Source: Candidatus Iainarchaeum sp.
Lineage (GTDB): Archaea; Iainarchaeota; Iainarchaeia; Iainarchaeales; UBA10191
NCBI GenBank assembly: GCA_030649735.1
Contig: JAUSFL010000023.1
Coordinates: forward strand, 15,698-79,697
Direction of reading: 5' to 3'
DNA: 64,000 nt
Part shown: piece by piece, positions 1-28,471 of the stretch
Numbering within the stretch: the first letter of the stretch is position 1
Layout: each line of letters starts with the position of its first letter
The notes under the pieces: generated by a model
The model's database searches: none
Seen by the model: the letters and a program-made list of their open reading frames with translations, nothing else
What the model was told of the DNA's origin: nothing
Made by a program: the position numbers and the translations under genes

Positions 1-1163
1 TTGTTTTGTCGCATGCGCATTTGGACCATATTGGCTTTGTTCCTGCTTTAATCAAGCATGGCTTTAAGGGAAAAATTTACTGCACTAAGCCGACAAGGGA
101 TTTGATGCACGTTTTATTGGCTGACGCTTTTGCTATTTCCAAAGAGCGCGGCCAAGAGCTTTATTCAGCGAAAGACATTGAGAAGACAATGCGGCTTGTT
201 GAGGTTGTCCCTTTTGAAAAATCAGTGAAAATTTCAAGGAATTTTTCCTTCAAGCTTTTTTCTTCTGGCCATATTATTGGCTCTGCAATGATTTTGATGA
301 ATTGCGCTGGCAAGCATTTGCTTTACACTGGGGATTTTAACACTCGGGAATCAAATCTTTTGGAAGGCTGTAAGATTCCTAAGGAGAAAGTTGATTTTTT
401 AATTATGGAAGCGACTTATGGCTCCAAGAAAGACATGCTGCCTTCATTGAAGTCTGTGAGCAAGGAATTTGCTGACGCTGTGAACGGGACTTTTCTTTTG
501 GGCGGCAAGGTTTTAGTGCCTGTTTTTGCTGTTGGAAGAGGGCAGGAGTTGATGTTTGTTTTGGAGAATTACATTCGCTCTGGTTATCTTCCTTGCGACA
601 CTGTTGTTTTTGTTGATGGAATGATTAATTCTGTGAACAAGATTTGCAGGCATAATGTCGTTTTTTTGAGGCCTGAAATTCCTGCAAGGATTTTGAATTC
701 TGATGATGATCCTTTCAAGAGCCCTTTTTTCAAGATTCCGGAATCTAAAAGCAAGTCTGAAGTTTACGCTGCGGAGAACGCGGTTATTTTGGCCACTAGT
801 GGAATGCTTACTGGCGGGCCTTCTGTTTCATACTTCAAAAGGCTTGCGAGGAACGAGCGCAATTTGATTGCTTTGGTTGGCTTTCAAGGAAAGGACAGTT
901 TGGGCAGGGAATTATTGAATGGGGCCAAAGAAGTCAAAATAAAGGAAAGCAGGGTTCCTGTCAAGGCAATGGTTAGAAAATTCGGCTTTTCAGGCCATGC
1001 GGATTTTTTGGGGCTGTTTGAGTTTGTCCGAAAGATTGCGCCTTCAAAGATTTTCATTGTTCACGGCGAGCATTCAAAGCAGTTGGAGTTTGTTGCCGTG
1101 GTTAAGAATAAATTGAAGAAAGAGGCTATTGTTCCAAAGGCTTTGGAAGTGTTTGACTTATGA
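1..1163 (+). CDS. beta-CASP / metallo-beta-lactamase family ribonuclease (aCPSF/RNase J-like), C-terminal part; 5' end lies outside the window
   Basis: Reading frame is open to the window edge. An HxHxDH metallo-beta-lactamase motif (HAHLDHIG) sits at the start. About 380 aa of beta-CASP-like sequence follow, ending with an FSGHAD-type motif. Confidence 0.6.
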   Translation, partial: VLSHAHLDHIGFVPALIKHGFKGKIYCTKPTRDLMHVLLADAFAISKERGQELYSAKDIEKTMRLVEVVPFEKSVKISRNFSFKLFSSGHIIGSAMILMNCAGKHLLYTGDFNTRESNLLEGCKIPKEKVDFLIMEATYGSKKDMLPSLKSVSKEFADAVNGTFLLGGKVLVPVFAVGRGQELMFVLENYIRSGYLPCDTVVFVDGMINSVNKICRHNVVFLRPEIPARILNSDDDPFKSPFFKIPESKSKSEVYAAENAVILATSGMLTGGPSVSYFKRLARNERNLIALVGFQGKDSLGRELLNGAKEVKIKESRVPVKAMVRKFGFSGHADFLGLFEFVRKIAPSKIFIVHGEHSKQLEFVAVVKNKLKKEAIVPKALEVFDL

Positions 1164-1570
1164 GTGAGAAGAAAGCCCAGGTTGCCGCGGAGTACCTTAT
1201 AATAAGCGGTTTTTTGCTGTTGGCAGTGATTGTTTTTTTCATTTACTCGATTTCAAGCTATAATGATTCTGTTTCTTTCACCAAGGCAAAGAATGTCGTT
1301 GATTCATTGTCTAATACTGCATCGCAGCTTTCCGGCCTTGGGAATGGCAGTTCTTTGGTTGTTGACTTGGAGTTTCCTGAAAACATCCAGTCTTTTCAGG
1401 TTTCTGGAAAGACATTCAGGCTTTTTTTGACTACTGGCTCAGGAACGCAAGAGTATTATGCGGAGTCAAGGCTTGACTTGAATTCTGCTGTTCTTCCATT
1501 GACTTCTGGATTTCATTCAATCAAGGTTTCGCGCTTGAACAACAAGGTTGACTTTGTAGAGGTAAAATGA
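1160..1570 (+). CDS. class III signal peptide (archaeal type IV pilin-like) protein; minor pilin or pseudopilin candidate
   Basis: N-terminus is MSEKKAQVAAEYLIISGFLLLAVIVFF: a basic stretch, an AQxxAAEY Flp/archaeal prepilin-like motif, then a TM helix. Start overlaps the upstream stop (ATGA). Confidence 0.55.
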   Translation: MSEKKAQVAAEYLIISGFLLLAVIVFFIYSISSYNDSVSFTKAKNVVDSLSNTASQLSGLGNGSSLVVDLEFPENIQSFQVSGKTFRLFLTTGSGTQEYYAESRLDLNSAVLPLTSGFHSIKVSRLNNKVDFVEVK

Positions 1571-1945
1571 ATGATTTCTGGCTTTAGGGCGCAGATTTCC
1601 ACAGAGGCTTTGTTCGCTGTTGTCATTATCTTGATCATTGGGCTTGTAATAAGCGTTTTTGCTTCTTTGAAAAGCTCTGAGTCTTCAGGCTTGTTCACTG
1701 CTTTTTCTGAAAAGGCGGAGTGCGAAAAGGTTTCTTCAATAATTTATTCCCTTTCCAATTCCAGCGCAAAGCCAAGCGTTGTTTTTGACTTGGACTTGAA
1801 TGCTTCGGTTCTGAACGGCTTTGTTTATGTCGGGGAGTATTATTGCGATTTTTTGGGTTCTGCTTCTGACGCGAATATTTCTTCAGGCACTTGGATTGCT
1901 TCAAAGAATTCTCAAGGGGTTGTTGTTTTTGCCAAAGTCGCTTGA
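1571..1945 (+). CDS. class III signal peptide (type IV pilin-like) protein
   Basis: N-terminus is MISGFRAQISTEALFAVVIILIIGLVI: the G-F-R-A-Q-x-S-x-E motif typical of prepilins, followed by a TM helix. Tightly packed after the previous gene. Confidence 0.55.
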   Translation: MISGFRAQISTEALFAVVIILIIGLVISVFASLKSSESSGLFTAFSEKAECEKVSSIIYSLSNSSAKPSVVFDLDLNASVLNGFVYVGEYYCDFLGSASDANISSGTWIASKNSQGVVVFAKVA

Positions 1946-2432
1946 CTCTAAAGGCCAGTCGATTTTTCTTGACCTGGCTTTTGGGGTTTTTTTGTTCTTG
2001 CTGTTGTTTGCCTTCATTTACTCGCAGTGGCAAACTAATATTTCTGTGGCAAGCCAGGAGTCTGATTTTGAAGAGCTTTCTTCAAGGGCCTTGATGTCTT
2101 GCGATTCTTTGGTTTCTTCGGCCGGAACTCCTGCAAACTGGTTCTTGCTTTCAAGCGCGGATGACATTAACACAATTGGAATCGCAAGGAAAAAGCGTTC
2201 TCTTGACGACAGGAAGCTCTCAAGGTTTTTGTCATTGGATTATAATGTTTCCCAGCAAAAGCTGAAGCTTTCCGGCTTTGACTTTTACTTTCACTTGTTC
2301 AATTCCAATGGAATCGATTTCAATTATGGCGTTTCTCCAGACTCAAACAAGGTTGTTGTTTCCTTGAGGAGAATTGTCGACTATCAAGGGGTGGAAAGCA
2401 TTGTCGATTGCTCAGTCTACAGGCAAGAATAG
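1920..2432 (+). CDS. pilin-like protein with class III signal peptide; start codon uncertain (TTG)
   Basis: The ORF-track frame 1821..2432 overlaps the previous gene by ~120 nt. In-frame TTG codons at 1920, 1923 and 1929 give LPKSLDSKGQSIFLDLAFGVFLFLLLFAFIY, i.e. a KGQS prepilin-like motif plus a TM helix. Confidence 0.4.
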   Translation: MLFLPKSLDSKGQSIFLDLAFGVFLFLLLFAFIYSQWQTNISVASQESDFEELSSRALMSCDSLVSSAGTPANWFLLSSADDINTIGIARKKRSLDDRKLSRFLSLDYNVSQQKLKLSGFDFYFHLFNSNGIDFNYGVSPDSNKVVVSLRRIVDYQGVESIVDCSVYRQE

Positions 2433-4812
2433 CCTGAAAGGGTTTGTTTTCAGCATTGACGCTGTTTTGGCCGTGATTCTAGTAAGCTCTGCAATTCTTG
2501 CAACGCAAACAAGCTTTTTCCAGTATTCCCATTCGTCAATCAATGTTCTTGCAAAGTCTGCTGATGACGTTTTTTCGACTTTGCAGGACACTGGGTTTTT
2601 GTTTCAGGAAACAGACAGGAATTCACTGGACAATGCCGCGCTTTCCTTTTACTTCAAGGCGAAGGGGCTTTTGCCTTCAAACTCTGGCCTTCAAGTCAGG
2701 CTTTCACAATATAATTTGAATAAGGAATCCTGCAGGCAATTCAAGGATTTTAACAACTGTTTTGCTTTGGCTGGAGAAGTCATTGTCGGTGATGCAATTG
2801 ACAGCAATGAAATTGCTTTTGGAAAGCGGTTGATTGTTAAAAAGCAAAGCCCCGGAGACTGCAATATTTCCGCGCAGTTTTCAGACTTGCCGCTAAATCA
2901 GTTTCCAAAAGAGTTTGGCAGTGCTTTTTTTGACACTGCTTTTTTTGCTTCTGGCGGCGATTTGAACATCGGAGTTGCCGCAAGCTATAACAGCCTTCCT
3001 TTAATGTCTGGAAGTTCAATACAGTGTGATGAGAACATTCATGTTGACTTGAATGCTTATTTTCCAACCACTGGAAGGCCTCCAATAAACATGATTTTTG
3101 GATCTGACAAGAGCTTGAGCATGGGGGAATGCACCATTGCCAAAGGAATTGTTTTGGACTCAAATAAAGGAACAACCTCTTCAACTTTCGTCAAAATTCA
3201 CGAGTTTTCTTTAAGCGACAATAATGCTTTTGATGTCTTGCTTGAATGGTCTGCCACTTGTTCTTCAAACTGTCCTGAAATGTACGTTGTCGCGCCTAAT
3301 GGCACTACAAAGTATGGCCTTGGTTTTCCTTCAACTACTGACTTGAATGTCAAAACTTGCAATTCTGGAGACTCTTTGAATTCCAAGGCTTATTATTTGG
3401 GCAAGTCCACTTTTGACTATTTGGCAGTTAACTCTAATGTCGGAAATTCTAAGTCCGGAACTTGGCAGGTTTGGGCAAGAAAGTCCGGAAGCGCGATTGA
3501 TTACAACTTGACTGTCAAAAGAATAAGGAATGATTATTTTTCCTCAAGCACTCTGACTGTTTTGCCTTGGAATAATCCAATTTCAAAGATTGAACTGGCC
3601 CAGGTTTTTATTGCAAGGTTTAATGAAAATGCTTTGTGGGATCCTGTTGCTGACGAGTATGCTTATGCTGAAATTGGCACTGACAAGAAAAGTGGCGGTA
3701 ATGGTTCTTCAATACAACCTAGCAGTGGCTTAAGGCCTATTGGAGACCAGGCCTTCAAAAGCCAGTTGAAGAATCTTTCCCCAGTAAGCGTTGATTCTTC
3801 GGCTTATGGGTTTGCAATGTCTGGCGACGACATGATGAATGATATTCTTGCAGACCAGCCGTCTGCCGAAGTCCGGGCAGAAATTATTTTTGGAGATGCA
3901 AATAGTTATGGAACTCCAAATGCGGTCGCTGCCGCGCAGGATGCAAAGGATAGGAACATTGTTGTTTTCACTGTTGGCTTTGGAAGAGACCATAATTTCA
4001 CTGACTTGAAAATGATTTCCGCAATTACTGGTGGGACTTTTTACAATGCTTCTGACGAGAATGCTTTGCTTTCAATTTTTGATACTATTGCGCAGAGGAT
4101 TTTTGCGCTTTCGGGCTACGCCTACGGAATTGGAATTCCTGACTTGAATATTACAATTCCAGTCCTTGCTGGCAGTGAAATTAACACTCCAGCAAGCAAT
4201 TTTCAGGGAACTTTTGAGCTTTCTTCAAGTTCTTTGCGATTTTTCATCACAGACATTAATATTTTGAGTCCTTGGTATGGATCTTATAATATTTCGTTCC
4301 CCTGCACAATGTCTTGCGCTTCGGAAAAAAAATACCTTCCGGAATTTGGAACAAATTACTCTTACACAGACACTAATGGAAATTATTACGCGAATAATTT
4401 TGACATAAACAAGTACATTGACGTTAATTTTTTGTATAGGGACTTAAGGCTTTCTTTTATGAATGCCGAATTGTTTGATATTAACCATTTGACTGTCACT
4501 GCACAGCTTTCTAATGTCGGCGACTTGAACACTTTAAGTTATCCTTCAGGAATGACTGACTTGAACTTTTCAGTAAATGGCTCTTTTGCCGGAACCAAGA
4601 CAATTCAAGGGCTTTGTGGGCATTTGAATCCTTTATGCGGCCTTTGGTTTGACTTAAACAGCGTGGAATTGTTTCGGGAGGGTGAAATTGAGGTTTCTAT
4701 TGACGCAAATAAGGCGCGTGATTGTCCTTTGGGGAATTCTGTAAAAATAATCTGCAATTCTCAATTAATCACCCAATTTTATGTTGTTGAGTTTGGAGTG
4801 TGGGAAAAATGA
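2374..4812 (+). CDS. large pilin-like protein with class III signal peptide and a vWA (von Willebrand factor A) domain; TadG-like pseudopilin / tip adhesin candidate
   Basis: N-terminus KGFVFSIDAVLAVILVSSAILA is prepilin-like. A MIDAS DxSxS motif (MIFGSDKSLSM) lies near nt 3115. The vWA C-terminal signature NIVVFTVGFG...ITGGTFYNASDENALLSIFDTIAQRI lies near nt 3960-4090. An alternative TTG start is at 2401. Confidence 0.6.
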   Translation: MSTIKGWKALSIAQSTGKNSLKGFVFSIDAVLAVILVSSAILATQTSFFQYSHSSINVLAKSADDVFSTLQDTGFLFQETDRNSLDNAALSFYFKAKGLLPSNSGLQVRLSQYNLNKESCRQFKDFNNCFALAGEVIVGDAIDSNEIAFGKRLIVKKQSPGDCNISAQFSDLPLNQFPKEFGSAFFDTAFFASGGDLNIGVAASYNSLPLMSGSSIQCDENIHVDLNAYFPTTGRPPINMIFGSDKSLSMGECTIAKGIVLDSNKGTTSSTFVKIHEFSLSDNNAFDVLLEWSATCSSNCPEMYVVAPNGTTKYGLGFPSTTDLNVKTCNSGDSLNSKAYYLGKSTFDYLAVNSNVGNSKSGTWQVWARKSGSAIDYNLTVKRIRNDYFSSSTLTVLPWNNPISKIELAQVFIARFNENALWDPVADEYAYAEIGTDKKSGGNGSSIQPSSGLRPIGDQAFKSQLKNLSPVSVDSSAYGFAMSGDDMMNDILADQPSAEVRAEIIFGDANSYGTPNAVAAAQDAKDRNIVVFTVGFGRDHNFTDLKMISAITGGTFYNASDENALLSIFDTIAQRIFALSGYAYGIGIPDLNITIPVLAGSEINTPASNFQGTFELSSSSLRFFITDINILSPWYGSYNISFPCTMSCASEKKYLPEFGTNYSYTDTNGNYYANNFDINKYIDVNFLYRDLRLSFMNAELFDINHLTVTAQLSNVGDLNTLSYPSGMTDLNFSVNGSFAGTKTIQGLCGHLNPLCGLWFDLNSVELFREGEIEVSIDANKARDCPLGNSVKIICNSQLITQFYVVEFGVWEK

Positions 4813-5765
4813 GCCTGCGAATTTCCCGGAAGGGAATTTTGTTCACTTTCATGTCCTTGCTTTTGATTCTTTCACTGCTTTCATTGGTTGATTCTTTGAA
4901 TTCGCAAAGGTCAAGCCTTAAGGCAAACGCGGCTTTAGTTTATTCCCTGAATTCCACTAGTTCTCGCTTTGACAACGTATATTCCGACTTTGTTTTTTTG
5001 GACAAGGACGCCAATGCAAGGCTTGTTGACCAAAGGAACCTGCCTTTTTCATACTCTATGGATTATAATTCTTTGAGCATTGTTCAAGAGCTTCCTTTGA
5101 GGATTAGTGTTTGGAACAATTACTTTGACCTTGTAAACGCTTATGTTATTTTTTTGAAGGACTCTAACACCGGGTTTTCAAGCGAATTTGCAGTTGATGC
5201 AAACACTGTGAAAAACGCGATTTGGGGCGGCAGCGTTCAAGACTTGAATTTCGTGCTTTTGCCCCAGTGCCTTTTTTATGACGTGAATTCTTCGCTTTAC
5301 TCGGCCGGGTTTTATTCAGCATCTTTTTCTGGCTGTTCTTTTGACTCTTCAAAAATCGGCAAGTATTCGGTAATTGTTTCCTTGAAAAGCCCTGCTGTTG
5401 AAGACTATAATTCAATAACTTACAATATTCCCGGCTTTTCAAATCCGGCAAATCCGGCTTTTGAATTCCTGCTTTTGGACAATAACTGCGCCAAATGCTC
5501 TCTTTCCCAGGCAAGCAAGAGCATTATTGGCTATTTTGACCCGACGCAAAGCGGCTGGATTACTGTAAAGTGCGTTGGGGCTTTGTGCCATTCCAAAGAC
5601 ATTAATATTTTCGTCAGTTCCGGCTTGCAGGCATTTCATTCTGGAGAGCGCGTGGACGTGAATTTCACTGTAAAATTCAAGAATTTCATTGATTCCTTTT
5701 ATTTCAAGGACTTTAATGCGTCAGTGACAAACAATGATTTTAACATTGTCTATTCGAATGCCTAA
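4809..5765 (+). CDS. pilin-like secreted/membrane protein (class III signal peptide-like N-terminus)
   Basis: MSLRISRKGILFTFMSLLLILSLLSLV: an RKG motif followed by a hydrophobic helix. ATGA overlap with the upstream gene. Seen only within the pilus locus. Confidence 0.45.
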   Translation: MSLRISRKGILFTFMSLLLILSLLSLVDSLNSQRSSLKANAALVYSLNSTSSRFDNVYSDFVFLDKDANARLVDQRNLPFSYSMDYNSLSIVQELPLRISVWNNYFDLVNAYVIFLKDSNTGFSSEFAVDANTVKNAIWGGSVQDLNFVLLPQCLFYDVNSSLYSAGFYSASFSGCSFDSSKIGKYSVIVSLKSPAVEDYNSITYNIPGFSNPANPAFEFLLLDNNCAKCSLSQASKSIIGYFDPTQSGWITVKCVGALCHSKDINIFVSSGLQAFHSGERVDVNFTVKFKNFIDSFYFKDFNASVTNNDFNIVYSNA

Positions 5766-5811
5766 CCGTCAGTAATTAAAAGCCAAAATGCATTATATTT
5801 AACGTGGTTTA

Positions 5812-7668
5812 ATGGGTTTTTTCCAAAGCATAATGGAGCTTTTTGGCCTGAGAAAGAAGAAAATTCTAGATTCTTCCAGCAAGGCTGCAATCCCTGTCCA
5901 GCCTGTCCCAAGGCTTGCTGAAAAAGCCCTGCCAAAAAATTCCTTGCTTGAGGAAAAGTTTGATTCGCCTTCTTCAAGTTCTTCAAGGAAAAAGTTCGCT
6001 TTCGGGAAAAACAAGCCTGTTTTGAAGCGGGCAAAGCAAAAGTCGGTTAATCCCTTGCAGTTTGAGGTAGAGCAGATTTTGACTGCCGCGCTTTCATTGA
6101 AAAAAAAGATTGAAGCCAGGAAAAGGAAAAAGCATTCTAAATCAAAGAAAAAAAAGCCAAAAAAGCTTTCAAAAAAGCAGCAAAGGCGGCTTTTAATCAA
6201 GGAATTGAAGGAAACTTTGACTCCATTGTCTCCCGAAGTGCTTAATAAAATGAAAAACAAGGTTTCCCGGGCAAATCCTTTGACTGCCGTTGAAATCCAG
6301 CGCTTGAGGTTTAATTTGAACAGCGGCCTTGCTGCCAAAAACCCCGAAGAGGCCGAAATCCGCACTGAAGAGCTTGACCGCATTAGAAAAACCCTTTTGG
6401 AAAAGCCCGCGGCAAGCATTACTGAAAAAGAATTGCGCACTGAAGAATTGGAAAGAATCCGCAAGTCTCTTGCAGAGCCTGGAGGAAATGGCCGCGACCG
6501 GCCTTTTCAATCAGCAGAAACACAGTCTCAAGCCTCGCAAAATAACTTTCAAGCCATTCCTAAATCTCAAAGTCTTCAACAGCAGGATTCAATGCCTTCT
6601 GTTCGGCAGCAGAATTCACAGCCGCAATTTTCCGGAATTCAAGGAACTGTTGTCCAAGTGCCTGAAGGCGCGAGCGTTTTCATAGGAAGCCAGCCGCCGC
6701 AAGTCCAGCAGGCTGTTCAGCAAAAAAAGTCTGAAGAGTCCCAATTAAGCATTGATGATGACATTTCAGCGACTGAAAGGCTGCTTAAGGCCTTGGAGCA
6801 GGATTATTTGAAGCGCAGGATTTCAGAGCAAGAGTACAGGCAAAGGGTTTTGGACCTGAACCAAAGATTGCGCGAATTGAAAATCAAGAAGAAAATTCAG
6901 GGAGAAAAGCCTGTTGAAATAAAGCTTCCTGATTCTGAAAAACCCCTGGAAGATCCGGAACAAAAAATTCCAGCGCCCGCGCCAGCCTCAAAGCCTTTAA
7001 GATCAAAATTTCAGTTTTCCAGGCCTTCAGTGCATTATGCTGTTCCGCAAGGCAATGATTCCTTGACTCCGGAAATGCAGAAGTTTTTGCAGGAACGGCT
7101 TGGCAAAAGCGATGACGCAAAGCTTTCAGAGCTTGAAGCGAACGTGCAAAAGCTAATGAAAAAATACAATCTTTCAGAATCAGAGGCAGAGGAAAAAATA
7201 GCGAAAATTGACAGCCCGAAGGTCTTGCAAAGCTTTGACAAGCTTGTTGACTTGATTGAGCTTGAGCAGCGCACCCAGAAATTAATGCAGGAGCAATTGC
7301 AGATTGCAAAAGACCGTTCTCCAAAGCAGGAGGAAAAGTCCGAGTTTGGAAGCGGGTTTGAGGCAGGGGTTCCAAAAAAGAAAATTGAAGAAGTGAAGGC
7401 AATTGTTGTTGAATTGCAAAAGCACCGCATTGTGACAGACTTTGACAAGCTTTTGGAGCTGGTTCAAAGTAAGGGAAAAGTGAGTGAAAGCGACGCATTT
7501 AAGGAATTGAAGATTTCCAAGGACAAATTAAAGGATTGCATTAATGTTTTGGAGCAGAACAATCTTGTGAGGGTTGAGTTTCCGCCGATTGGAACGTCAG
7601 TCATTTTTGACGTTAATTACATCCCTCCAGTGAAGCTATCCAAGCAGGAAAAGAATGAAAAAAAGTGA
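5812..7668 (+). CDS. Lys/Glu-rich coiled-coil, low-complexity protein of unknown function within the pilus locus
   Basis: Long K-rich tracts (KRKKHSKSKKKKPKKLSKKQQRR). An internal ~25-aa duplication (EIRTEELDRIRKTL / ELRTEELERIRKSL). A possible winged-helix-like C-terminal ~90 aa. Immediately upstream of the ATPase. Confidence 0.5.
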   Translation: MGFFQSIMELFGLRKKKILDSSSKAAIPVQPVPRLAEKALPKNSLLEEKFDSPSSSSSRKKFAFGKNKPVLKRAKQKSVNPLQFEVEQILTAALSLKKKIEARKRKKHSKSKKKKPKKLSKKQQRRLLIKELKETLTPLSPEVLNKMKNKVSRANPLTAVEIQRLRFNLNSGLAAKNPEEAEIRTEELDRIRKTLLEKPAASITEKELRTEELERIRKSLAEPGGNGRDRPFQSAETQSQASQNNFQAIPKSQSLQQQDSMPSVRQQNSQPQFSGIQGTVVQVPEGASVFIGSQPPQVQQAVQQKKSEESQLSIDDDISATERLLKALEQDYLKRRISEQEYRQRVLDLNQRLRELKIKKKIQGEKPVEIKLPDSEKPLEDPEQKIPAPAPASKPLRSKFQFSRPSVHYAVPQGNDSLTPEMQKFLQERLGKSDDAKLSELEANVQKLMKKYNLSESEAEEKIAKIDSPKVLQSFDKLVDLIELEQRTQKLMQEQLQIAKDRSPKQEEKSEFGSGFEAGVPKKKIEEVKAIVVELQKHRIVTDFDKLLELVQSKGKVSESDAFKELKISKDKLKDCINVLEQNNLVRVEFPPIGTSVIFDVNYIPPVKLSKQEKNEKK

Positions 7669-7675
7669 TTTGTGA

Positions 7676-9208
7676 ATGTCGGCAAAGATTTTGGAAAATT
7701 ATGACGTGAAGGCAGACAATGTCGCCGTTGAAGTGCAGGTTGTCGAGGCAGAGAACGAGTTTGTAAGGCAGTACTTGCTCAGCATTCCAGAATACGGCCT
7801 TGGGACAAAGGCGCTTTTGGAAAACTTGAAAGCGTCAATAATAACCGATGCGGGCATCAATGCGGAGAAAATGCTCAACCCAAAATTCATGAAAGAATTA
7901 AAGGACAGGTTTGCAGAAAAAGCCGGCAAATTATTGCAGAGGGAATTGCCTGACTCAAAGCCTGAAATAAGGAACACTTTGATTGGGCTTTTGATCCATG
8001 AAATGCTTGGCTTGGGAAAAATAGAGTTTTTGCTTGCTGACGGGAATTTGGAAGAAATTGTCATTAATTCTGCAGCAGAGCCAATTTGGGTTTATCACAA
8101 GAAGTTCGGCTGGCTGAAATCCAATGTTTTTGTCGAGCCAGAGGCTGAAATCCAGAATTTTGCAAACATCATTGCAAGAAGGGTTGGAAAGCAAATAACC
8201 ACTTTGAATCCATTGCTTGACGCGCACTTGATTACTGGAGACCGCGCAAACGCGACTTTATTCCCGATTTCCACGCGCGGAAACACAATCACAATAAGGC
8301 GCTTTAGGAGAGACCCTTGGACTGTTACAGACATTATTGACAACAAGACGGCGTCTGCGGAATTAATGTCTTTGGTGTGGCTTGCAATACAGTATGAAAT
8401 GAACATTTTGATTTCCGGCGGAACTGGCTCTGGAAAAACCTCAATGCTGAACGTATGCATGCCTTTCATTGAAGCAAACAATCGAATAATATCTATTGAG
8501 GACACCAGGGAAATCCAATTGCCCGAGTTTTTGCACTGGGTTCCTTTGACAACGCGCGAGCCGAATTCTGAAGGCAAGGGAGAAATCTCAATGCTTGACT
8601 TGCTTGTCAATAGCTTGAGAATGCGGCCTGACAGGATAATTGTCGGAGAAGTCAGGAGGCAAAGGGAAGCCGAAGTGATGTTTGAGGCAATGCACACAGG
8701 CCATTCAGTGTACACTACAGTGCACGCCAACACTGCCGATGAAACAATCCGCCGCTTGGTCAGCCCCCCAATAAGCATTCCGATAACAATGCTTGATTCA
8801 GTGCATTTGAACCTTGTAATGTTCAGGAACAGGCGCGTTGGCGCAAGAAGGGTTTTGCAGCTTGCCGAATACATCAGTGAAAAGCGCTCTGAAAATGAAG
8901 AGCGCGTGCGCGCGAACATTTTGTACCGCTGGAAGCCAGCCTCTGACGAAATTTCAAAGCATTCTGAAAGCATTCGATTTTATGATGAGCTTGCAATGCA
9001 CACTGGCTTCACGCCTGATGAAATGCAGGCTGACTTGAAGCAAAAGAAGGAAATCCTCGAATGGCTTGTGAAAAACAAGATTCGCGACATTTCAAGCGTT
9101 GGAAGAGTGATTGCCGAATATTATCTGGACACTTCAAGCATTACTTCGCTTGTTGAAAAAAACAAGGTTCCTTCATGGTTTGTTGAGAAGAGGGCGGTTG
9201 TAGAGTGA
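7676..9208 (+). CDS. type IV filament assembly ATPase, FlaI/TadA/VirB11 (GspE) family
   Basis: Walker A GGTGSGKTS, Asp/Walker B box RPDRIIVGEVR, His box HTGH. About 510 aa, matching archaeal secretion-superfamily ATPases. Confidence 0.9.
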   Translation: MSAKILENYDVKADNVAVEVQVVEAENEFVRQYLLSIPEYGLGTKALLENLKASIITDAGINAEKMLNPKFMKELKDRFAEKAGKLLQRELPDSKPEIRNTLIGLLIHEMLGLGKIEFLLADGNLEEIVINSAAEPIWVYHKKFGWLKSNVFVEPEAEIQNFANIIARRVGKQITTLNPLLDAHLITGDRANATLFPISTRGNTITIRRFRRDPWTVTDIIDNKTASAELMSLVWLAIQYEMNILISGGTGSGKTSMLNVCMPFIEANNRIISIEDTREIQLPEFLHWVPLTTREPNSEGKGEISMLDLLVNSLRMRPDRIIVGEVRRQREAEVMFEAMHTGHSVYTTVHANTADETIRRLVSPPISIPITMLDSVHLNLVMFRNRRVGARRVLQLAEYISEKRSENEERVRANILYRWKPASDEISKHSESIRFYDELAMHTGFTPDEMQADLKQKKEILEWLVKNKIRDISSVGRVIAEYYLDTSSITSLVEKNKVPSWFVEKRAVVE

Positions 9209-10113
9209 AAGCCAAGCCAAAGGCAAAAAAGAAGATTTCAATTCCTTTCGCGCCTTTTCCACTGCCTGTCTTGAAGAACATTGCGCAAAATTTTTTAGGA
9301 ATCGGGGAAATGATAGCGCATGCCTTTCCATACCTTGAGCTTCAGCTAAAGCAGGCTGAAATTGAATTGAAGAAGGAAGAGTACGGCGCGATAATGTTCT
9401 TGATGTTTGTTTTTTACTTTTTGCTTTTTGGGCTGCTTGTTTACTTTGTGGCATTAAGGCTTGCGCCAAAGCAGGCGTTGCCAATGGCTTTCACTATTGG
9501 CGGAGTTTTAGGGCTTTTGATTCTTGTTCAATTAAGCGCTTATCCAGCAATCCTTGTCAAAAAGAAAGTTCGCGACATTGAAAGGAACTTGGTTTTTGCC
9601 TTGCGCACAATGCTCATTGAAATAAAGTCCGGGGTTTCCTTGTTTGATACATTGAATGTCATTGCGCAAGGCGATTATGGGATTTTGAGCGATGAATTCA
9701 AGCAGGCAATTGATGAGATAGAGACTGGCACTGCGGAAGAGGACGCTTTGCAGAAGATTGCAATGCAAAATCCTTCATTGTTTTTCAGGAAGGCATTGTG
9801 GCAATTGGTTAATGGAATGAAGGCCGGCGCTGATGTCGCGACTGTAATGACAGAGCTTGTCAATTCAATTGGAAAAGAGCAGGTCATTGAAATAAACCGT
9901 TACGGCGGCTCGCTACGACTGCTTTCATTGATTTACATGATGATGGGGGTCATTATTCCTTCAATGGGCTTGACTTTGCTCATTGTGCTGTCTTCTTTTC
10001 CGCAAATCAAGATTGTGGATGAAATGTTTTGGGGACTGCTTGCATTGGTTGTTTTAATGCAGTTCATGTTTTTGGGGTTTATGAAAAGCAAGAGGCCGAA
10101 TCTTATCGGGTGA
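9205..10113 (+). CDS. TadB/FlaJ-like polytopic membrane platform protein (T2SS-F domain)
   Basis: T2SS-F-like segment LIEIKSGVSLFDTLNVIAQ...ALWQLVNGMKAGADVATVMTELVNSIGKEQ flanked by TM helices. ATGA-type overlap with the ATPase gene. Confidence 0.8.
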   Translation: MKAKPKAKKKISIPFAPFPLPVLKNIAQNFLGIGEMIAHAFPYLELQLKQAEIELKKEEYGAIMFLMFVFYFLLFGLLVYFVALRLAPKQALPMAFTIGGVLGLLILVQLSAYPAILVKKKVRDIERNLVFALRTMLIEIKSGVSLFDTLNVIAQGDYGILSDEFKQAIDEIETGTAEEDALQKIAMQNPSLFFRKALWQLVNGMKAGADVATVMTELVNSIGKEQVIEINRYGGSLRLLSLIYMMMGVIIPSMGLTLLIVLSSFPQIKIVDEMFWGLLALVVLMQFMFLGFMKSKRPNLIG

Positions 10114-10120
10114 ATAAAGA

Positions 10121-11104
10121 ATGGTTTACAGCAGGATTTCAGCGTTTATTCCTTCAGGCATCAGGGAAGCCTTTGCGAAAGAAATAGATTATTTAGGAAT
10201 TAATATCGAGTCCGGAAAGTTTGTCGGATTCATTTTTTCATTCGGGCTTGCCTTAAGCCTTGGCATTGCATTAAATCTTCAATTGTTTTACCAAATTCCT
10301 TTCCTGCTTTCATTCGCGCTTTTTGCGAGCCTTTTCATTGGCGGAATTTATGTCTGGCTTAGCATTACTGCGGAAAGCAAGGGAAAGTTTGTCGAAAAAA
10401 TCTTGCCCGATGCCTTGCAGTTGATTGCAAGCAACATTCGCTCTGGCTTGACGACTGAAAGGGCATTATTGGTTTCTGCAAGGCCTGAATTCGGGCCTTT
10501 GGAGGAAGAGTTGAGAAAAGCATCCAAGCGCATTCTTACAGGAACTCCAATACAGGAGGCATTGTCAGACATTCCAAAGCGCATTAATTCCAAGACTGTC
10601 GAGAAAACAATTTGGCTTGTGAATAAGGGAGTTTCTTCAGGCGGCCAGATTGCGGATGTCTTGACACAGCTTTCTGACGACTTGCGGGAGCAGAATTCAT
10701 TGCAGGATGAAATTCGCGCGAACATCAGCATTTATGTGATGCTCATTTTCTTTTCCGCAGCAATTGGGTCTCCAATAATGCTTGGAATTTCCTCTTTTAT
10801 AGTGCAGATTCTGCACAAGCAGATTTCAGGCATTCAGACTGTTGACACTTCAAGGATTTCTGCGCATTCCAAAAGCCCGTTTTCTGGAATTCCAAAATCA
10901 AGCATTGACCCTGACTTTGTGCTGGTTTTTGCAGAATTGTCCTTGCTTGTCACGACGATTTTTGCCTCAATGACAATGGGAATAATCAATACTGGCAATG
11001 AAAAGAACGGCTTGAAGTACTTTCCTGCCTTGCTGATTGTTTCTTTCGGGATTTTCCTGGCAATACGGTTTGTGCTTTTCACAATGTTCAAGGCAATGGT
11101 CTAG
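10121..11104 (+). CDS. TadC/FlaJ-like polytopic membrane platform protein (second T2SS-F domain protein)
   Basis: T2SS-F-like segment LQLIASNIRSGLTTERALLVSA...WLVNKGVSSGGQIADVLTQLSDDLREQ with multiple TM helices. Together with the previous gene it resembles a split FlaJ or a TadB+TadC pair. Confidence 0.8.
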   Translation: MVYSRISAFIPSGIREAFAKEIDYLGINIESGKFVGFIFSFGLALSLGIALNLQLFYQIPFLLSFALFASLFIGGIYVWLSITAESKGKFVEKILPDALQLIASNIRSGLTTERALLVSARPEFGPLEEELRKASKRILTGTPIQEALSDIPKRINSKTVEKTIWLVNKGVSSGGQIADVLTQLSDDLREQNSLQDEIRANISIYVMLIFFSAAIGSPIMLGISSFIVQILHKQISGIQTVDTSRISAHSKSPFSGIPKSSIDPDFVLVFAELSLLVTTIFASMTMGIINTGNEKNGLKYFPALLIVSFGIFLAIRFVLFTMFKAMV

Positions 11105-11199
11105 TTCTATCCAAGTTTGGATTTCAGAGTCAAAGTTTGCTTTGAGCCTTTCGGCTTTTAAAAAAAAGAAAAAAGAAAGGAAGAATTATTTCCTTTCAA
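11105..11199. terminator. convergent intergenic region with a short hairpin and long oligo-T/oligo-A tracts (candidate bidirectional archaeal terminator)
   Basis: AGCCtttcGGCT hairpin followed by TTTT and then an A-run on the plus strand. The minus strand reads CTTTTTTCTTTTTTTT directly after the pilin stop. Confidence 0.45.
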
Positions 11200-11613
11200 T
11201 TAAACAGTTCCTGCAACGCAAGTTGTTGATTCAGTGTGTGAAATTCCGTTGGCAGTGTATGAGATGCTCATTACATACGTTGACCCTGCCGCTATTGGAC
11301 TTGTGAAGACAGCGTTAGTGTCTGCGCTTCTTGATAAGCTAGTGCTTCCCATTAATCCCGCGCCTAAGTCTCCGCTTGCGTTAAGGTCGCTCATTGTGCC
11401 TGAAGAGCCGTTTTGGATTGCTAGGCTGATTCCTGTTGCTTGAATTGCGTAATCCTTCAACAGCAGTCTTCCGCCGAACTGCGTGCAGTTTGCTGGAGTG
11501 TTGAAAACACCGAAAGCGAACAAGGCTGCGACAACAATTACTATTACTACCAAGGCCCACCCGTAAGTCATGAGGTATTCCAAGGCTGATTGTCCCTTAC
11601 TGTTCAATTGCAT
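11200..11613 (-). CDS. Flp-like / archaeal type IV major pilin precursor (class III signal peptide)
   Basis: From the internal ATG at 11613: MQLNSKGQSALEYLMTYGWALVVIVIVVAALFA, a classic KGQ-SALEY prepilin motif plus TM helix. C-terminal half is Ser/Thr/Gly/Asn-rich. GGAGGA sits immediately upstream. The upstream part of the long ORF (to 11715) is treated as non-coding. Confidence 0.8.
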   Translation of the reverse strand: MQLNSKGQSALEYLMTYGWALVVIVIVVAALFAFGVFNTPANCTQFGGRLLLKDYAIQATGISLAIQNGSSGTMSDLNASGDLGAGLMGSTSLSRSADTNAVFTSPIAAGSTYVMSISYTANGISHTESTTCVAGTV

Positions 11614-11724
11614 TCCTCCTTTTAATTTTATGAATGTAATAGTTTCTATTATGCTTTGGCAGTATTTAAACCTAATGCTGGCTTTTGTTTTTCGGAAAAC
11701 TTTAAATTGTCGCATTGAGTCATT
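11614..11724. promoter_or_regulatory. divergent promoter region between the major pilin gene (-) and the first KaiC/FlaH-like gene (+)
   Basis: TATA-like TATTTAAA at 11663-11670 (~50 nt upstream of the pilin ATG) and CTTTAAAT at 11701-11708 (~20 nt upstream of the + gene ATG). Confidence 0.4.
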
Positions 11725-12477
11725 ATGTTTGTAATTATGGCTGCAGCTTCAAAAAAGCAGGAATTGGCCGGCGCCTCTTTAGATTCCGTAAAGCGAATTC
11801 AAACAGGAATTCAAGGCTTTGATGAATTGGTTGAGGGTGGAATTCCCGCAAACTCATTGGTTGTCTTGACTGGCTCTTGCGGCACTGGAAAAAGCACTTT
11901 TGCAATGAATTTTCTGGTGCAGGGCGCGTTGAATGGCGAGCCAGGATTGTACATTAGCCTGGAAGAGAATGTTGACGACAACATTCAAGAAATGACTTTG
12001 TTTGGCTGGCCAATCAAGAAATTGATTGAAGAAAAAAAGCTTGCCATAACACAGCCTGAACTGTATGATTTTGACAAGCTTGTAACCCACATTGAGGATT
12101 TTGTCTCAAAATTGAAGGCAAAGCGGATCGTAATTGACTCTTCCTCATTGATTGGCTTGTATTTTAAGGACGCTTTCAAGGTAAGAAAGGCAATGGTTGA
12201 CCTTGAGACAATGCTCAAGCGATTGAATTGCACTGCGATGGTGATTAATGAAGTCAAGGAAGGCGATGCCGGGCTTTCAACTTACGGCGTTGAAGAATTC
12301 ATTGCCGACGGCGTCATTGTATTGTACTGCCAGAAGAAGGAAAACCTGTACACTAGGGCAATAAACATCAGGAAAATGCGTTCCACAAACCATTCAATGA
12401 AAATCCACCCAATCCACATTAAAAGGCCCGGGGGCATTACGGTTTTTGCTTCTGAGGAAGTTTTCACTGAATTTTAG
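11725..12477 (+). CDS. FlaH/KaiC-like RecA-superfamily ATPase (single RecA domain)
   Basis: IQGFDELVEGGIPANSLVVLTGSCGTGKSTF (Walker A), ...GVEEFIADGVIVL..., ...IRKMRSTNHS... match the FlaH/KaiC/aRadC pattern. About 250 aa. Confidence 0.8.
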   Translation: MFVIMAAASKKQELAGASLDSVKRIQTGIQGFDELVEGGIPANSLVVLTGSCGTGKSTFAMNFLVQGALNGEPGLYISLEENVDDNIQEMTLFGWPIKKLIEEKKLAITQPELYDFDKLVTHIEDFVSKLKAKRIVIDSSSLIGLYFKDAFKVRKAMVDLETMLKRLNCTAMVINEVKEGDAGLSTYGVEEFIADGVIVLYCQKKENLYTRAINIRKMRSTNHSMKIHPIHIKRPGGITVFASEEVFTEF

Positions 12478-12523
12478 AATTGGTTTTTATACTTGTTTTT
12501 TTCTAAGTCTTAGTTGATAATGA

Positions 12524-13228
12524 ATGGTTACAATGGAATTTGAGAGGACAAAGTCCGGAATTCCCGGCTTTGATGAATTATTGTATGGGGGCATTCCGAA
12601 AGGAAACCTTGTAGTGCTTTCAGGAGACCCCGGCTCTGGAAAGACTGTTTTTTGCTTCATGTTTTTGTATGAGGGCGTTTTGCGCTTTGACGAGCCCGGA
12701 ATTTACGTCAGCCTGGAAGAAAGCGCTGACGATCTTTTGAGCAATTCATTGGAGTTTGGAATGGACCTGGCCCCGTTGATCAAGGCAAACAAGCTGAAAA
12801 TAATAACAATCGAGCTTTATGACTTTGACAAGCTGAAAAGCTCGATTGAGGATGCCGTGCAAAGCATTGGCGCAAAGCGCGTTGTCGTTGATCCAGGCGT
12901 TGTTTTCAGGCTTTTCTTTGAGAAAGAGCTTGACGCCAGAAAGCGCATTCTTTCGCTTGGAAAAATGCTCAAGCATTTGGGCTGCACCAGCGTCGTGACA
13001 AACGAGCTTTCGCTGGATGATAGCAAGAGCCTTTTTGGATTGGAAGAGTATGTTGCTGACGGCGTGGTTTTAATGTATCACACCAAGTCCCAAAATCGCT
13101 TCATTCGAAGCATTGCCGTAGTGAAAATGCGCGGCACAAAGATTTCGGAAAACCTGCATCCTTTGCAGATTGCAAAGAATGGATTGAAGGTTTTGTCAAC
13201 GCAGGAATTGTTTGAGGATGTTGAGTAA
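12524..13228 (+). CDS. FlaH/KaiC-like RecA-superfamily ATPase (second paralog)
   Basis: IPGFDELLYGGIPKGNLVVLSGDPGSGKTVF (Walker A), GLEEYVADGVVLMY, VVKMRGTKIS. About 234 aa. Confidence 0.8.
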   Translation: MVTMEFERTKSGIPGFDELLYGGIPKGNLVVLSGDPGSGKTVFCFMFLYEGVLRFDEPGIYVSLEESADDLLSNSLEFGMDLAPLIKANKLKIITIELYDFDKLKSSIEDAVQSIGAKRVVVDPGVVFRLFFEKELDARKRILSLGKMLKHLGCTSVVTNELSLDDSKSLFGLEEYVADGVVLMYHTKSQNRFIRSIAVVKMRGTKISENLHPLQIAKNGLKVLSTQELFEDVE

Positions 13229-13841
13229 GATGCCTTTAAAGCCTTCTGGTTTTTCTGATTTTGACTTTGAGCAATTGCTTAGCCCGAACCGCGCGATAAA
13301 CTCAAAGATTTCCTTGGCTTTGGATGGCATTCCCAATGATTTTGTGGTTTTGTTCATTGTTGACTTGAAGAATTATGCGGGAACTGTTGTTGAATTATTG
13401 CGTGTGCTTCAATTGGAAAATAATACTGGGGTTTACTTGACAATAAACAAGCCGGTTGAGGATTTAATCCGCACTTTCAAAGCCCAAAGGCTTGACACTG
13501 AAAAGATTTTTTTCATTGACGCAATAAGCGCTCTTTCTGAAAGGAAGACTTTGGAGTCCCAAAACATTATTTTGCTTGACAGTCCCACGGACTTGATTGA
13601 AATAAACAATATTGTTTCGAAAAAAATCGCGTTGGAAGAGAGCAAGTTTGTTGTTTTTGACTCATTGAGCACTTTGCTTTTGTACAATAAGCCAATGGCT
13701 GTTGAGAAATTCCTGCATGTTTTGGTCGGCAAAATGCGCGGCTCCAGGGTCAAGGGCTTTTTGATTACTGTAAAAAGCTCTGAGCATGCCGGATTGATTG
13801 AAACAATCAGCCAGTTTGTCGACAAGATTGTTGAAATTTAA
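13212..13841 (+). CDS. KaiC/FlaH-like paralog with a degenerate (lost) P-loop
   Basis: Same overall pattern (GFSDFDFEQLL...DGIPNDFVVLFIV..., VGKMRGSRV) but no GxxGxGK[ST] motif. Its start overlaps the preceding paralog. Confidence 0.55.
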   Translation: MRMLSKMPLKPSGFSDFDFEQLLSPNRAINSKISLALDGIPNDFVVLFIVDLKNYAGTVVELLRVLQLENNTGVYLTINKPVEDLIRTFKAQRLDTEKIFFIDAISALSERKTLESQNIILLDSPTDLIEINNIVSKKIALEESKFVVFDSLSTLLLYNKPMAVEKFLHVLVGKMRGSRVKGFLITVKSSEHAGLIETISQFVDKIVEI

Positions 13842-18871: not shown

Positions 18872-18912
18872 TAAGAATCTTTGAGTAAGTTTTAGGAAAA
18901 TTGGTGAAATAA

Positions 18913-19959: not shown

Positions 19960-20234
19960 AATTTATGGATAAGAAGAAAATTATTGTTTTTTTGGCTTTG
20001 ACAATTTTGATTCTTATACTCTTTGAAATTATATTTTCGGTTTCAAATTATAGCTTAGTTTCAGGATTTAGTTCACAAAGGGGTTTTCCATTTCCTTACT
20101 ACGCAGAATTACCTTGCTCTTCGAGGGAAGATTCCTTAATGTGCAGAGAATATGCATTTCTAGTTGTGGATATTGCAATTGCCGCGATTATTTCTGCTGG
20201 CGTGACTTTTTTAATTATGAGGCATTCTAAATGA
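19956..20234 (+). CDS. small membrane protein (1-2 TM), unknown; inserted between HMGCS and thiolase
   Basis: 92-aa ORF with a TM helix (IIVFLALTILILILFEIIF) and a second hydrophobic C-terminal segment. Overlaps neighbouring gene ends by 4 nt on each side. Confidence 0.45.
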   Translation: MKFMDKKKIIVFLALTILILILFEIIFSVSNYSLVSGFSSQRGFPFPYYAELPCSSREDSLMCREYAFLVVDIAIAAIISAGVTFLIMRHSK

Positions 20235-22166: not shown

Positions 22167-22227
22167 TTTTTCGTTCATTGTCTTTCAAAAAATAGTTTTT
22201 AATCATTCATTGCAGTAATTGATTATT

Positions 22228-23226: not shown

Positions 23227-23235
23227 TTTGATATT

Positions 23236-25097: not shown

Positions 25098-25103
25098 TTT
25101 GAA

Positions 25104-28278: not shown

Positions 28279-28359
28279 AAAATACTCAAGGGTAATAAGC
28301 TTAAAATTAGAGAACTCTGATTTAAATACTATAAATTTAGTGGAATATTCAAATTAGGG

Positions 28360-28456: not shown

Positions 28457-28471
28457 TTGGATAGTTTTATC

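Follow-up and report, generated by a model that had tools for sequence, protein, structure and literature searches.

The question raised by positions 1160-13841 of a 64,000-nucleotide stretch of contig JAUSFL010000023.1 (Candidatus Iainarchaeum sp., assembly GCA_030649735.1; the whole stretch, in which all positions are counted, is called the window from this point on) is what kind of type IV filament its genes build. A first-pass annotation had seen in them a mixture of Tad pilus and archaellum parts that was not a described system. The locus is not a new Tad pilus-archaellum hybrid. From homology and gene context, we think it rather likely that it encodes the adhesive type IV pilus machinery and subunits of a DPANN archaeon, of the Epd-like/euryarchaeal group, with a KaiC module as the likely regulator. 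The filament itself had been recognized correctly: a T2SSE-family ATPase gene adjoins platform genes and genes for class III signal-peptide proteins, and Pfam matches bear out a vWA-bearing pilin (VWA), a split platform (T2SSF, twice) and an adjacent trio of KaiC-like RecA-fold proteins (KaiC).

A conserved pilus locus in Iainarchaeota

All open reading frames (ORFs) listed for the span in the first-pass annotation lie where it had placed them and agree with the gene calls of the identical public contig, which derives from a metagenome-assembled genome (MAG) named 'Candidatus Diapherotrites archaeon' (Iainarchaeota, DPANN; locus tags Q7R70_03145 and Q7R70_03185). Nine forward-strand genes are tightly packed, with ends that overlap or nearly abut, in the order pil1-pil2-pil3-vWA-pil5-CC-ATPase followed by two platform genes. 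A 46-nt gap separates pil5 from CC and contains a TATA-like box; this and all later statements on promoters, ribosome-binding sites and T-runs are direct readings of the sequence.

Related loci were collected by scanning one genome per species with the ATPase as query, after which the window proteins were compared by BLASTP with all ORFs there. Most of the 80 ATPase-anchored loci (numbered with the prefix L) are from Candidatus Iainarchaeum MAGs, with ATPase identities of 60-69%, and the remainder, at 55-60%, are from Woese-, Nano-, Aenigm- and Nanohaloarchaeota. The core ATPase-TadB-TadC is found in all groups, including Woese-, Nano- and Aenigmarchaeota. Throughout the Iainarchaeota the order is pil1-(pil2)-pil3-vWA-pil5-CC-ATPase-TadB-TadC, usually followed by pilA. 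A search of other genomes for this gene order, as the annotation had proposed, thus finds it in most of the 80 loci and, since the homologues occur there in the same order, the genes are not chance ORFs. Nine contigs carry the locus in MAGs labelled Falkowbacteria, Chloroflexota, Methanosarcinales or Thaumarchaeota (L034, L048, L049, L056, L058, L063, L065, L072 and L080); with ATPase identities of 57-63% and the same gene order as in Iainarchaeota, they look like mis-binned DPANN rather than transfers.

The assembly ATPase and its split platform

The putative pilus assembly ATPase (7676-9208, forward strand) has 510 amino acids (aa) and belongs to the T2SSE/VirB11 superfamily (Pfam T2SSE, 130 bits), with an architecture like that of AfGspE and PilB3. 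Its closest solved relative is AfGspE (2oap), at 229 bits over aa 45-487, a range that includes the C-terminal domain; the PDB matches to FlaI (168 bits) and CpaF (167 bits) are confined to the core. The FlaI/TadA identity first given to the enzyme is not sustained by the corresponding NCBIfam models, as evidenced by scores of 278 bits against a cutoff of 550 for FlaI (NF058587) and 190 against 373 for TadA (TIGR03819), and the protein is also far below the cutoff for BasE. The PilB3_C domain is matched in 17 of 32 family members, while the window copy is sub-threshold at 15 bits (cutoff 27).

A crude four-taxon test was performed on a query-anchored alignment of the core (residues 102-364), rebuilt from PDB alignments to three solved references. 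Core identity of the window ATPase is 40% to AfGspE, 39% to CpaF and 36% to FlaI, and that between AfGspE and FlaI is 45.5%. The four-point condition favours a split of the window ATPase and CpaF from AfGspE and FlaI, and so pairs it with neither FlaI nor AfGspE. Because the protein scores below the FlaI cutoff and this test does not group it with FlaI, the ATPase, judged from its sequence, is not of the archaellum type.

The gene for platform protein 1 (9205-10113, forward strand; 302 aa, approximately four transmembrane segments) begins within an overlap with the ATPase stop codon and is followed by that for platform protein 2 (10121-11104, forward strand; 327 aa, approximately five transmembrane segments). 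Both are TadB/TadC-like proteins with a single T2SSF domain (54 and 62 bits, respectively), and both are kept in nearly all related loci.

Pilin-like proteins and a candidate adhesin

In six proteins the N-terminus shows the class III signal-peptide pattern, in which a [KR][GA]x motif precedes a strongly hydrophobic helix. The motif also occurs in 66-100% of those homologues whose N-terminus can be aligned (15/19 to 8/8, by family). The predicted major pilin is encoded by pilA (11200-11613, reverse strand), convergent with the platform genes, and consists of 137 aa that begin with MQLNSKGQ/SALEYLMTYGWALVVIV, where the slash, here and below, marks the putative cleavage site. A strong GGAGG ribosome-binding site precedes the gene, and a T-rich run resembling a terminator follows it. 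Among 38 aligned family members of 130-175 aa, the N-terminus KGQ/SALEYLMTYGWAL is invariant, with Q8, A10, E12, L14, T16, Y17, G18 and W19 as the invariant residues. The C-terminal domain is globular, variable and beta-rich, with two conserved Cys residues, and the family has no sequence relative in Pfam or the PDB, whether searched with the single sequence or with the 38 members. At this length and with such a domain, PilA is not the 'tiny Flp-like' subunit for which it had been taken.

The remaining five are encoded in the forward-strand block, four of them minor pilin-like. The first, pil1 (1160-1570; 136 aa; MSEKKAQ/VAAEYLII), has homologues at the same position in 38 related loci and matches Pfam Class_IIIsignal below the cutoff (E=8e-4). 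It is followed by pil2 (1571-1945; 124 aa; MISGFRAQ/ISTEAL), which has no Pfam match and 19 syntenic homologues, some of them grown to approximately 530 aa. The third, pil3 (1941-2432; approximately 163 aa; xDSKGQ/SIFLDL), is a remote member of DUF7287, which is matched at E=0.023 by the window copy and in 7 of 34 family members, with a best E-value of 2e-5; Q6, G62, P64 and W67 are invariant in its family. The last, pil5 (4809-5765; 318 aa; MSLRISRKG/ILFTF), has 38 syntenic homologues and no Pfam match. Apart from pil3, the minor pilins are therefore without family assignment.

The remaining protein of the block, the vWA pilin (2374/2401-4812, forward strand; approximately 803-812 aa), combines a class III signal peptide with a split vWA domain and a Cys-rich C-terminal region. 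Pfam VWA is matched at 28 bits in the window copy and in all 26 homologues. The domain is split by an insert of approximately 230 aa in the window copy; in 18 of the 26 homologues, a different insert, an LVIVD beta-propeller, lies within the vWA domain. A DxSxS sequence (DKSLS, at approximately aa 243) and the conserved alignment columns G472/T474 and D508 probably represent the residues of a metal-ion-dependent adhesion site (MIDAS). The family profile matches solved vWA structures, with weak matches to the fimbrial tip protein Mfa5 and to PilB of S. sanguinis (7b7p), a pilin that bears a vWA domain. On this basis the vWA pilin is a predicted adhesin. The earlier label 'TadG-like' holds as an analogy between vWA pseudopilins and fails as a statement of family, in that Pfam returned no TadE or TadG match for the protein.

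Among relatives (L007, L025, L052, L080 and others), the vWA pilin gene shows high plasticity, with products of 653-1655 aa and, in L006, tandem duplicates, and both pil1 and pil2 have grown to 475-945 aa in some lineages. This plasticity suggests rapid diversification of what would be the pilus tip.

The RecA-fold genes belong to the KaiC family

Three RecA-fold genes lie beyond pilA on the forward strand. KaiC1 (11725-12477; 250 aa; Pfam KaiC, 214 bits) is divergent from pilA, and the 111 nt between them (11614-11724) contain TATA-like boxes facing both ways: AACTTTAAATTG precedes the KaiC1 ATG by approximately 25 nt, and an A/T-rich box precedes the pilA ribosome-binding site, both of them putative promoter elements. 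KaiC2 (12524-13228; 234 aa; Pfam KaiC, 199 bits) is the conserved core of the module; its orthologues, 55-84% identical, are near pilus genes in most related loci. KaiC1 is an extra paralogue of KaiC2 (43% identity), present in the window, in L002 and in a few close relatives (L083-L087). Both are single-domain KaiC-family ATPases. KaiC3 (13218-13841; 207 aa), the start of which overlaps the KaiC2 stop by 11 nt, is a degenerate KaiC-like protein, and its matches to Pfam DUF7504 (34 bits) and KaiC (30.8 bits; the gathering cutoff of PF06745 is 26.6 bits) are both above cutoff.

The first-pass annotation had regarded the trio as FlaH-type proteins. Against KaiC models, solved KaiC and PH0186, their scores are 168-215 bits, as opposed to 24-46 bits against ArlH/FlaH. 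KaiC1 and KaiC2 score 164-208 bits against solved KaiC. In the PDB, KaiC2 matches KaiC at 164-201 bits, PH0186 at 131, PH0284 at 129 and SSO2452 (2w0m) at 85, and the FlaH structures 4yds and 4wia follow at 35 and 24 bits, interleaved with RecA, RadA and Rad51 paralogues. The top PDB matches of KaiC1 are KaiC and PH0186, with no FlaH match below 1e-5. The NCBIfam ArlH model (NF052589, cutoff 215) gives 46.5 bits for KaiC1 and 45.4 for KaiC2. Since the FlaH/ArlH scores do not rise above the level of RecA/RadA, we assign KaiC1 and KaiC2 by sequence to the KaiC family and not to FlaH. The KaiC-like proteins beside pilus loci of Woese-, Nano- and Aenigmarchaeota behave likewise, at 127-152 bits to KaiC models versus 29-51 to ArlH. 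Nor, as the annotation had supposed, are FlaH-type proteins restricted to the archaellum, as Epd loci are listed with a FlaH-family secondary ATPase (Denise et al., PMC6668835).

A recombination paralogue of the RadB/aRadC type was considered and rejected, in view of RadB scores of 30 bits for KaiC1 and 26 for KaiC2 (cutoff 172) and SSO2452 matches of 85-93 bits, lower than those to KaiC and PH0186. With KaiC_arch_3 scores of 168 (KaiC1) and 146 bits (KaiC2), below the cutoff of 249, the two proteins form, on profile evidence, a distinct DPANN subfamily. All three proteins are single-domain (207-250 aa), and Pfam identified no KaiA or KaiB in the locus, unlike a KaiABC oscillator, in which a double-domain KaiC has KaiB (and KaiA) as partners.

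KaiC1 and KaiC2 retain the Walker A motif, the catalytic Glu-Glu (EE) pair and Walker B, which predicts activity as KaiC-type ATPases or autokinases; among 33 KaiC2 homologues, 32 have Walker A. Aligned with these two proteins, KaiC3 has neither Walker A nor EE, and Walker A is missing from all of its 29 homologues (0/29). By its motifs, KaiC3 is a conserved pseudo-enzyme, a pseudo-KaiC of the DUF7504 type.

Linkage of the KaiC module to pilus genes

Where the ATPase is flanked on each side by 9 kb or more (31 loci), a KaiC1/2-like gene occurs within 10 kb in 23 loci and a KaiC3-like gene in 18; among 48 loci with at least 5 kb of downstream flank, 32 have a KaiC1/2-like gene. The linkage takes several forms. 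The module may point away from pilA, the arrangement of the window; be inverted and stand between TadC and pilA, so that pilA immediately precedes KaiC3 (the L024/L026/L040 type); be upstream of pil1 (L022, L038, L067 and L070); lie 4-5 kb downstream; or, in Woesearchaeota, be arranged as KaiC3(-)/KaiC(+)/KaiC(+) shortly after TadC. A reciprocal scan of metagenome contigs with KaiC2 returned 19 loci, and pilA or other pilus genes stand beside KaiC2 in 8 of the approximately 10 that have informative flanks.

An active KaiC, a pseudo-KaiC without Walker A (DUF7504) and the helical protein CC2, described below, make up an Iainarchaeota-wide module beside the major pilin gene. A functional link between KaiC and the pilus is likely, though not an obligate one. 

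Two helical accessory proteins

Two lineage-restricted proteins accompany the ATPase and the KaiC genes. CC (5812-7668, forward strand), a K/Q-rich protein of 618 aa and a putative cytoplasmic accessory, is always encoded directly upstream of the ATPase, and its gene has a TATA-like ATTATATTTAA approximately 20 nt upstream. The protein starts with an amphipathic helix (MGFFQSIMELFGLRKKK) and ends with a winged helix, and it also has disordered regions rich in K and Q and a confidently predicted helical hairpin. There are 46 homologues in related loci, and the C-terminus is conserved among the 30 that were aligned. No Pfam family is matched by the window copy; the family profile matches an ArsR-type winged helix-turn-helix at E=0.0015. 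An AlphaFold2 model of aa 301-618 has a predicted local distance difference test score (pLDDT) of 85-90 over the winged helix, for which Foldseek returns only generic folds of this type (ESCRT-II, MarR and Fur).

The gene for CC2 (13838-15148, reverse strand; 436 aa), just outside the span first noted, converges on KaiC3, the stop codon of which it overlaps. The protein is confidently predicted to be an all-helical hairpin or coiled coil (pLDDT 88.6) with non-specific structural neighbours. Only ten homologues were found in a database of 5.8 billion proteins, and those that carry an organism name are labelled Diapherotrites or 'archaeon'. The gene belongs to the KaiC module: it travels with KaiC2 and, in many loci, lies convergent behind KaiC2/KaiC3.

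CC and CC2 may serve as scaffolds or adaptors. Family, profile and structure searches detected no similarity of either protein to any archaellum component or to the other. Both proteins and their orthologues begin with a similar amphipathic N-terminus, MG[FL]xxx[IF]xxxFGxKK (5812-5865 and 15100-15148 in the window), and in L037 an additional K/E-rich protein of 225 aa with a similar N-terminus is encoded directly upstream of KaiC2 (L037 17890-18567). This common N-terminus could be a membrane-targeting helix. Homology of CC and CC2, which the similar N-termini had suggested, was rejected at an hhalign probability of 0.1%.

Proposed function and alternatives

In the pilus that we propose, the six class III signal-peptide proteins would be cleaved after [KR][GA][QFI] by a prepilin peptidase encoded elsewhere. 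By homology, a hexameric T2SSE ATPase, working on a platform of two single-T2SSF proteins, would polymerize abundant PilA into a fibre that the five other pilin-like proteins might prime or tip. The 800-aa vWA/MIDAS pilin would be the adhesin, plausibly for attachment to surfaces or host cells. CC, a lineage-specific cytoplasmic accessory, may be a scaffold or a regulator. One or two active KaiC proteins, their dead paralogue (DUF7504) and CC2 would most likely regulate pilin expression or pilus assembly, by analogy with the regulators proposed by Makarova et al. for KaiC proteins linked to type IV pili and with CirA of Haloferax volcanii.

Several observations weigh against this reading. No A24 prepilin peptidase is encoded in the 64-kb window, as the first-pass annotation had noted for the shorter span, according to a screen of multi-transmembrane ORFs and Pfam, and processing is thus assumed. 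Many of the loci come from related MAGs, so that the counts are not phylogenetically independent. The full-length architecture of the ATPase favours AfGspE/PilB3, whereas by core distances, in the crude four-taxon test, it is marginally nearer to CpaF than AfGspE and FlaI are, so that it may belong either to clade 2 of Makarova et al. or to their Epd/Tad-related clade 1. Of the 31 fully flanked loci, 8 have no KaiC module, among them L004, a region of the complete AR10 genome. In several relatives it lies 4-5 kb from the pilin gene; to illustrate, the 4-kb gap in L037 holds coaD, coaE, a PIN-domain protein gene and a phosphoglucomutase gene. L091 and L092 contain KaiC2 and CC2 with no pilus genes within 10 kb upstream. 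Given these gaps, absences and pilus-free pairs, the KaiC-pilus link is a tendency and not an obligate operon.

In the peptidase screen, Pfam assigned multi-transmembrane ORFs to Rce1-like and ZIP families. A 215-aa protein with approximately five transmembrane segments (51304-51951, forward strand) was checked as a divergent prepilin peptidase and rejected, having no Pfam match and no GxGD-type motif.

The same intervening housekeeping genes, incomplete loci and pilus-free KaiC2-CC2 pairs would be expected if the KaiC-like proteins were functionally unrelated to the pilus, that is, signalling or stress/DNA-repair paralogues (aRadC/SSO2452-like) whose proximity is inherited synteny in a small, gene-dense genome. 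We consider this unlikely. Archaeal KaiC-like proteins do serve several purposes, as deletion of cirA also alters cell shape and colony size (PMC10983859), and a gene for a PD-(D/E)XK Cas4-like nuclease is next after the KaiC module in the window. A repair module of this nuclease and KaiC was rejected, however, because L082, the closest relative (84% ATPase identity), is the only other locus with this neighbour, which all 80 ATPase-anchored loci lack. The RadB/RadA model scores are negligible at 26-40 bits, with SSO2452 again below KaiC. The co-occurrence of 74% within 10 kb on either side is far above the approximately 10% that we estimate for chance (five dispersed KaiC loci, a 1-Mb genome and a 21-kb window), a comparison in which the loci are not independent. 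The linkage survives inversions and moves to either side of the pilus genes, recurs in Woese- and Nanoarchaeota with KaiC paralogues only 30-35% identical, and in one lineage has pilA placed between KaiC2 and KaiC3. The first-pass annotation had anticipated that the KaiC genes might prove to be separately regulated repair paralogues unrelated to FlaH; they are indeed not FlaH, but their conserved linkage to the pilin gene speaks against separate regulation as repair genes.

More doubtful still is a structural role, in which KaiC2 and KaiC3, perhaps with CC or CC2, would form a cytoplasmic ring docked on the pilus ATPase as part of the motor, comparable to ArlH and the ArlX/ArlCDE scaffold of the archaellum; this would be the strongest version of the first-pass reading. 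FlaH is itself a KaiC-like single-domain RecA protein and so has the same fold, and weak ArlH matches are obtained (45-47 bits); a FlaH-family ATPase in Epd loci, listed by Denise et al., would be a precedent. The linkage of the module to the ATPase/pilin locus outlasts several rearrangements and spans DPANN phyla, the translational coupling of KaiC2 and KaiC3 suggests a hetero-oligomer, and two helical or coiled-coil proteins alongside the ATPase and KaiC genes loosely recall ArlX. If such a ring existed, the motor of DPANN Epd/Tad-like pili would include a scaffold in the style of the archaellum, or a switch, gated by phosphorylation, that sets extension or retraction; KaiC-type rings would then be ancestral to the motors of archaeal type IV filaments and not have been invented with the archaellum. 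Yet by score the proteins resemble KaiC/PH0186 far more than FlaH, the scores for which equal those for RecA/RadA, and the intact EE pair predicts an active KaiC-type ATPase or autokinase. Absence from approximately one-quarter of otherwise complete loci, and occurrence behind housekeeping genes or apart from pilus genes, would be unusual for an essential motor part, and CC and CC2 bear no detectable resemblance to archaellum components or to each other.

As for a Tad-archaellum mixture, the supposed Tad hallmarks do not make one, since two single-T2SSF genes are ancestral in archaeal Epd-like pili and no Flp, TadE/G or TadA signature was found. Regulation of an Epd-like/euryarchaeal pilus by the KaiC module is the reading that we prefer.

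Other genes in the window

A contiguous archaeal-type mevalonate cluster occupies positions 17501-29527. It encodes HMG-CoA reductase, HMG-CoA synthase, a thiolase with a DUF35/ChsH2-type protein of the oligonucleotide/oligosaccharide-binding (OB) fold, a GHMP (mevalonate) kinase, a UbiX-like flavoprotein, a UbiD-like decarboxylase, the large and swivel subunits of aconitase X (phosphomevalonate dehydratase type), a protein of the amino-acid-kinase fold (isopentenyl phosphate kinase type) and an FMN-dependent dehydrogenase (IDI2-like). For DPANN, a group described as metabolically limited, a full route to lipid precursors of this kind seems notable. A 555-aa fusion protein (38009-39676, reverse strand) joins an MtrA-like N-terminal region, thymidylate synthase and a C-terminal pterin-binding DUF4346, an arrangement that is unusual for thymidylate synthesis.

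Farther along, a LAGLIDADG/homing-endonuclease-like protein of 311 aa with a helix-turn-helix (60575-61510, forward strand) overlaps the stop codon of grpE (59812-60585) and is followed by a 630-aa ORF (61511-63403), which was read as dnaK from its N-terminus only. Two large proteins begin with a signal-anchor-like helix: one of 960 aa (55697-58579, forward strand), with a Kazal-type protease-inhibitor domain near the N-terminus, and one of 727 aa with no family match (53418-55601, reverse strand). These secreted or membrane-anchored proteins may be surface proteins.

Comparison with known systems

The nearest known systems are the type IV pili of Euryarchaeota and DPANN, namely clade 2 of Makarova et al. 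(arCOG01817; AfGspE AF0659 and Haloferax PilB3/PilB4), together with clade 1 (Methanococcus Epd). AfGspE is the exemplar of 'Clade 2, arCOG01817' in supplementary Fig. S4 of that study (Makarova et al. 2016, PMC4858521), and clades 2 and 1 correspond to 'System 1/2' of Sivabalasarma & Albers 2026. Loci of the two-platform 'System 1' have been assigned to methanogens, Thermococcales and DPANN (bioRxiv 10.64898/2026.04.22.720090), and DPANN pilus islands full of unrecognizable pilins were illustrated in 2019 (PMC6393860). Like clades 1 and 2, the locus has a VirB11/T2SSE ATPase of AfGspE-like full-length architecture with a PilB3_C-type C-terminal domain (sub-threshold in the window copy), two tadC-like platform genes, which are reported for clade 1 and many clade 2 loci (PMC4858521), KaiC-family ATPases nearby, a peptidase presumably encoded elsewhere, approximately five minor pilin genes in a block, a separate major pilin gene and large adhesin-like proteins. 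It differs in its lineage-specific pilins, among which PilA belongs to no Pfam family and only pil3 reaches DUF7287, and that remotely; in its adhesin, a vWA/MIDAS pilin that often has an inserted LVIVD propeller; in the K-rich coiled-coil/winged-helix CC that precedes the ATPase; and in having neither FleN/MinD nor EppA in the locus. Its major pilin has 137 aa, compared with approximately 70 aa in clade 1.

With the bacterial Tad/Flp pilus the locus shares two single-T2SSF platform genes directly behind the ATPase, an arrangement also common to archaeal Epd-like pili, and an ATPase core that is 39% identical to CpaF. The vWA pseudopilin is analogous to TadG, and the A-L-E-Y of mature PilA recalls the A-I-E-Y of Flp. 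These likenesses fit a shared ancestry with Epd-like pili, as the bacterial Tad system has been inferred to derive from an archaeal Epd-like system, both having two single-T2SSF platform genes and a secondary ATPase (Denise 2019, PMC6668835). Unlike a bacterial Tad pilus, the locus is that of an archaeon with class III signal peptides, its ATPase remains below the TadA cutoff, and Pfam found no Flp_Fap, TadE/TadG, TadZ/CpaE (ParA-like), TadV or secretin among its proteins. PilA, with its globular domain, is neither a short Flp (approximately 50-60 aa) nor an Epd-type pilin. The 'Tad-like' traits are ancestral features of archaeal Epd-like/euryarchaeal pili.

Likeness to the archaellum motor is confined to a homologous ATPase (278 bits to the FlaI model) and platform and to single-domain proteins of the RecA/KaiC fold nearby. 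In contrast to the archaellum, the ATPase is under the FlaI cutoff, the platform is encoded by two genes and not by a single two-domain ArlJ, the KaiC-like proteins reach only 24-46 bits with ArlH/FlaH (cutoff 215) and, as had been noted at the outset for the accessory genes, no archaellin, ArlF/G, ArlCDE or ArlX is found by Pfam among all locus proteins.

The KaiC module resembles archaeal KaiC regulators (the arCOG01171 group; PH0186, PH0284 and CirA) in its single KaiC domain with Walker A, EE and Walker B, in its position near type IV filament loci and in the pairing with an inactivated paralogue or partner. KaiC-family ATPases (arCOG01171/01174/01175) are strongly linked to archaeal type IV pilus loci and have been proposed as regulators (Makarova et al. 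2016, PMC4858521). In Haloferax volcanii, the KaiC-like protein CirA, the gene for which is next to the arl genes, represses archaellum genes; it was found in a screen for pilin-dependent motility (PMC10983859). The module is distinguished by its partners, DUF7504 and a Diapherotrites-only helical protein of 436 aa, neither of them KaiB-like, and by a KaiC_arch_3 score of 168 versus 249. The vWA pilin, for its part, resembles PilB of S. sanguinis (7b7p) in that an N-terminal signal and hydrophobic helix of the pilin type precede a vWA domain with a probable MIDAS motif, and in being a predicted fibre adhesin; it differs in the large insert within the vWA domain and the Cys-rich C-terminal region, and the weak profile match (28.6 bits) points to a fusion that arose independently, in a class III signal-peptide protein of an archaeon.

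The overall combination of a pilus locus with KaiC neighbours, which the first-pass annotation had believed new, is already described for archaeal pili (Makarova et al. 2016). Specific to the lineage are the PilA family, the vWA/LVIVD pilin, the winged-helix CC and the trio of KaiC, pseudo-KaiC and helical protein. DPANN are thought to need physical contact with hosts or surfaces, for which type IV pili are prime candidates, and the locus provides a well-conserved parts list for an Iainarchaeota pilus. Current views are left unchanged: the split platform and the Tad-like traits fit the Epd-to-Tad scenario, and the KaiC linkage fits the published regulator proposal.

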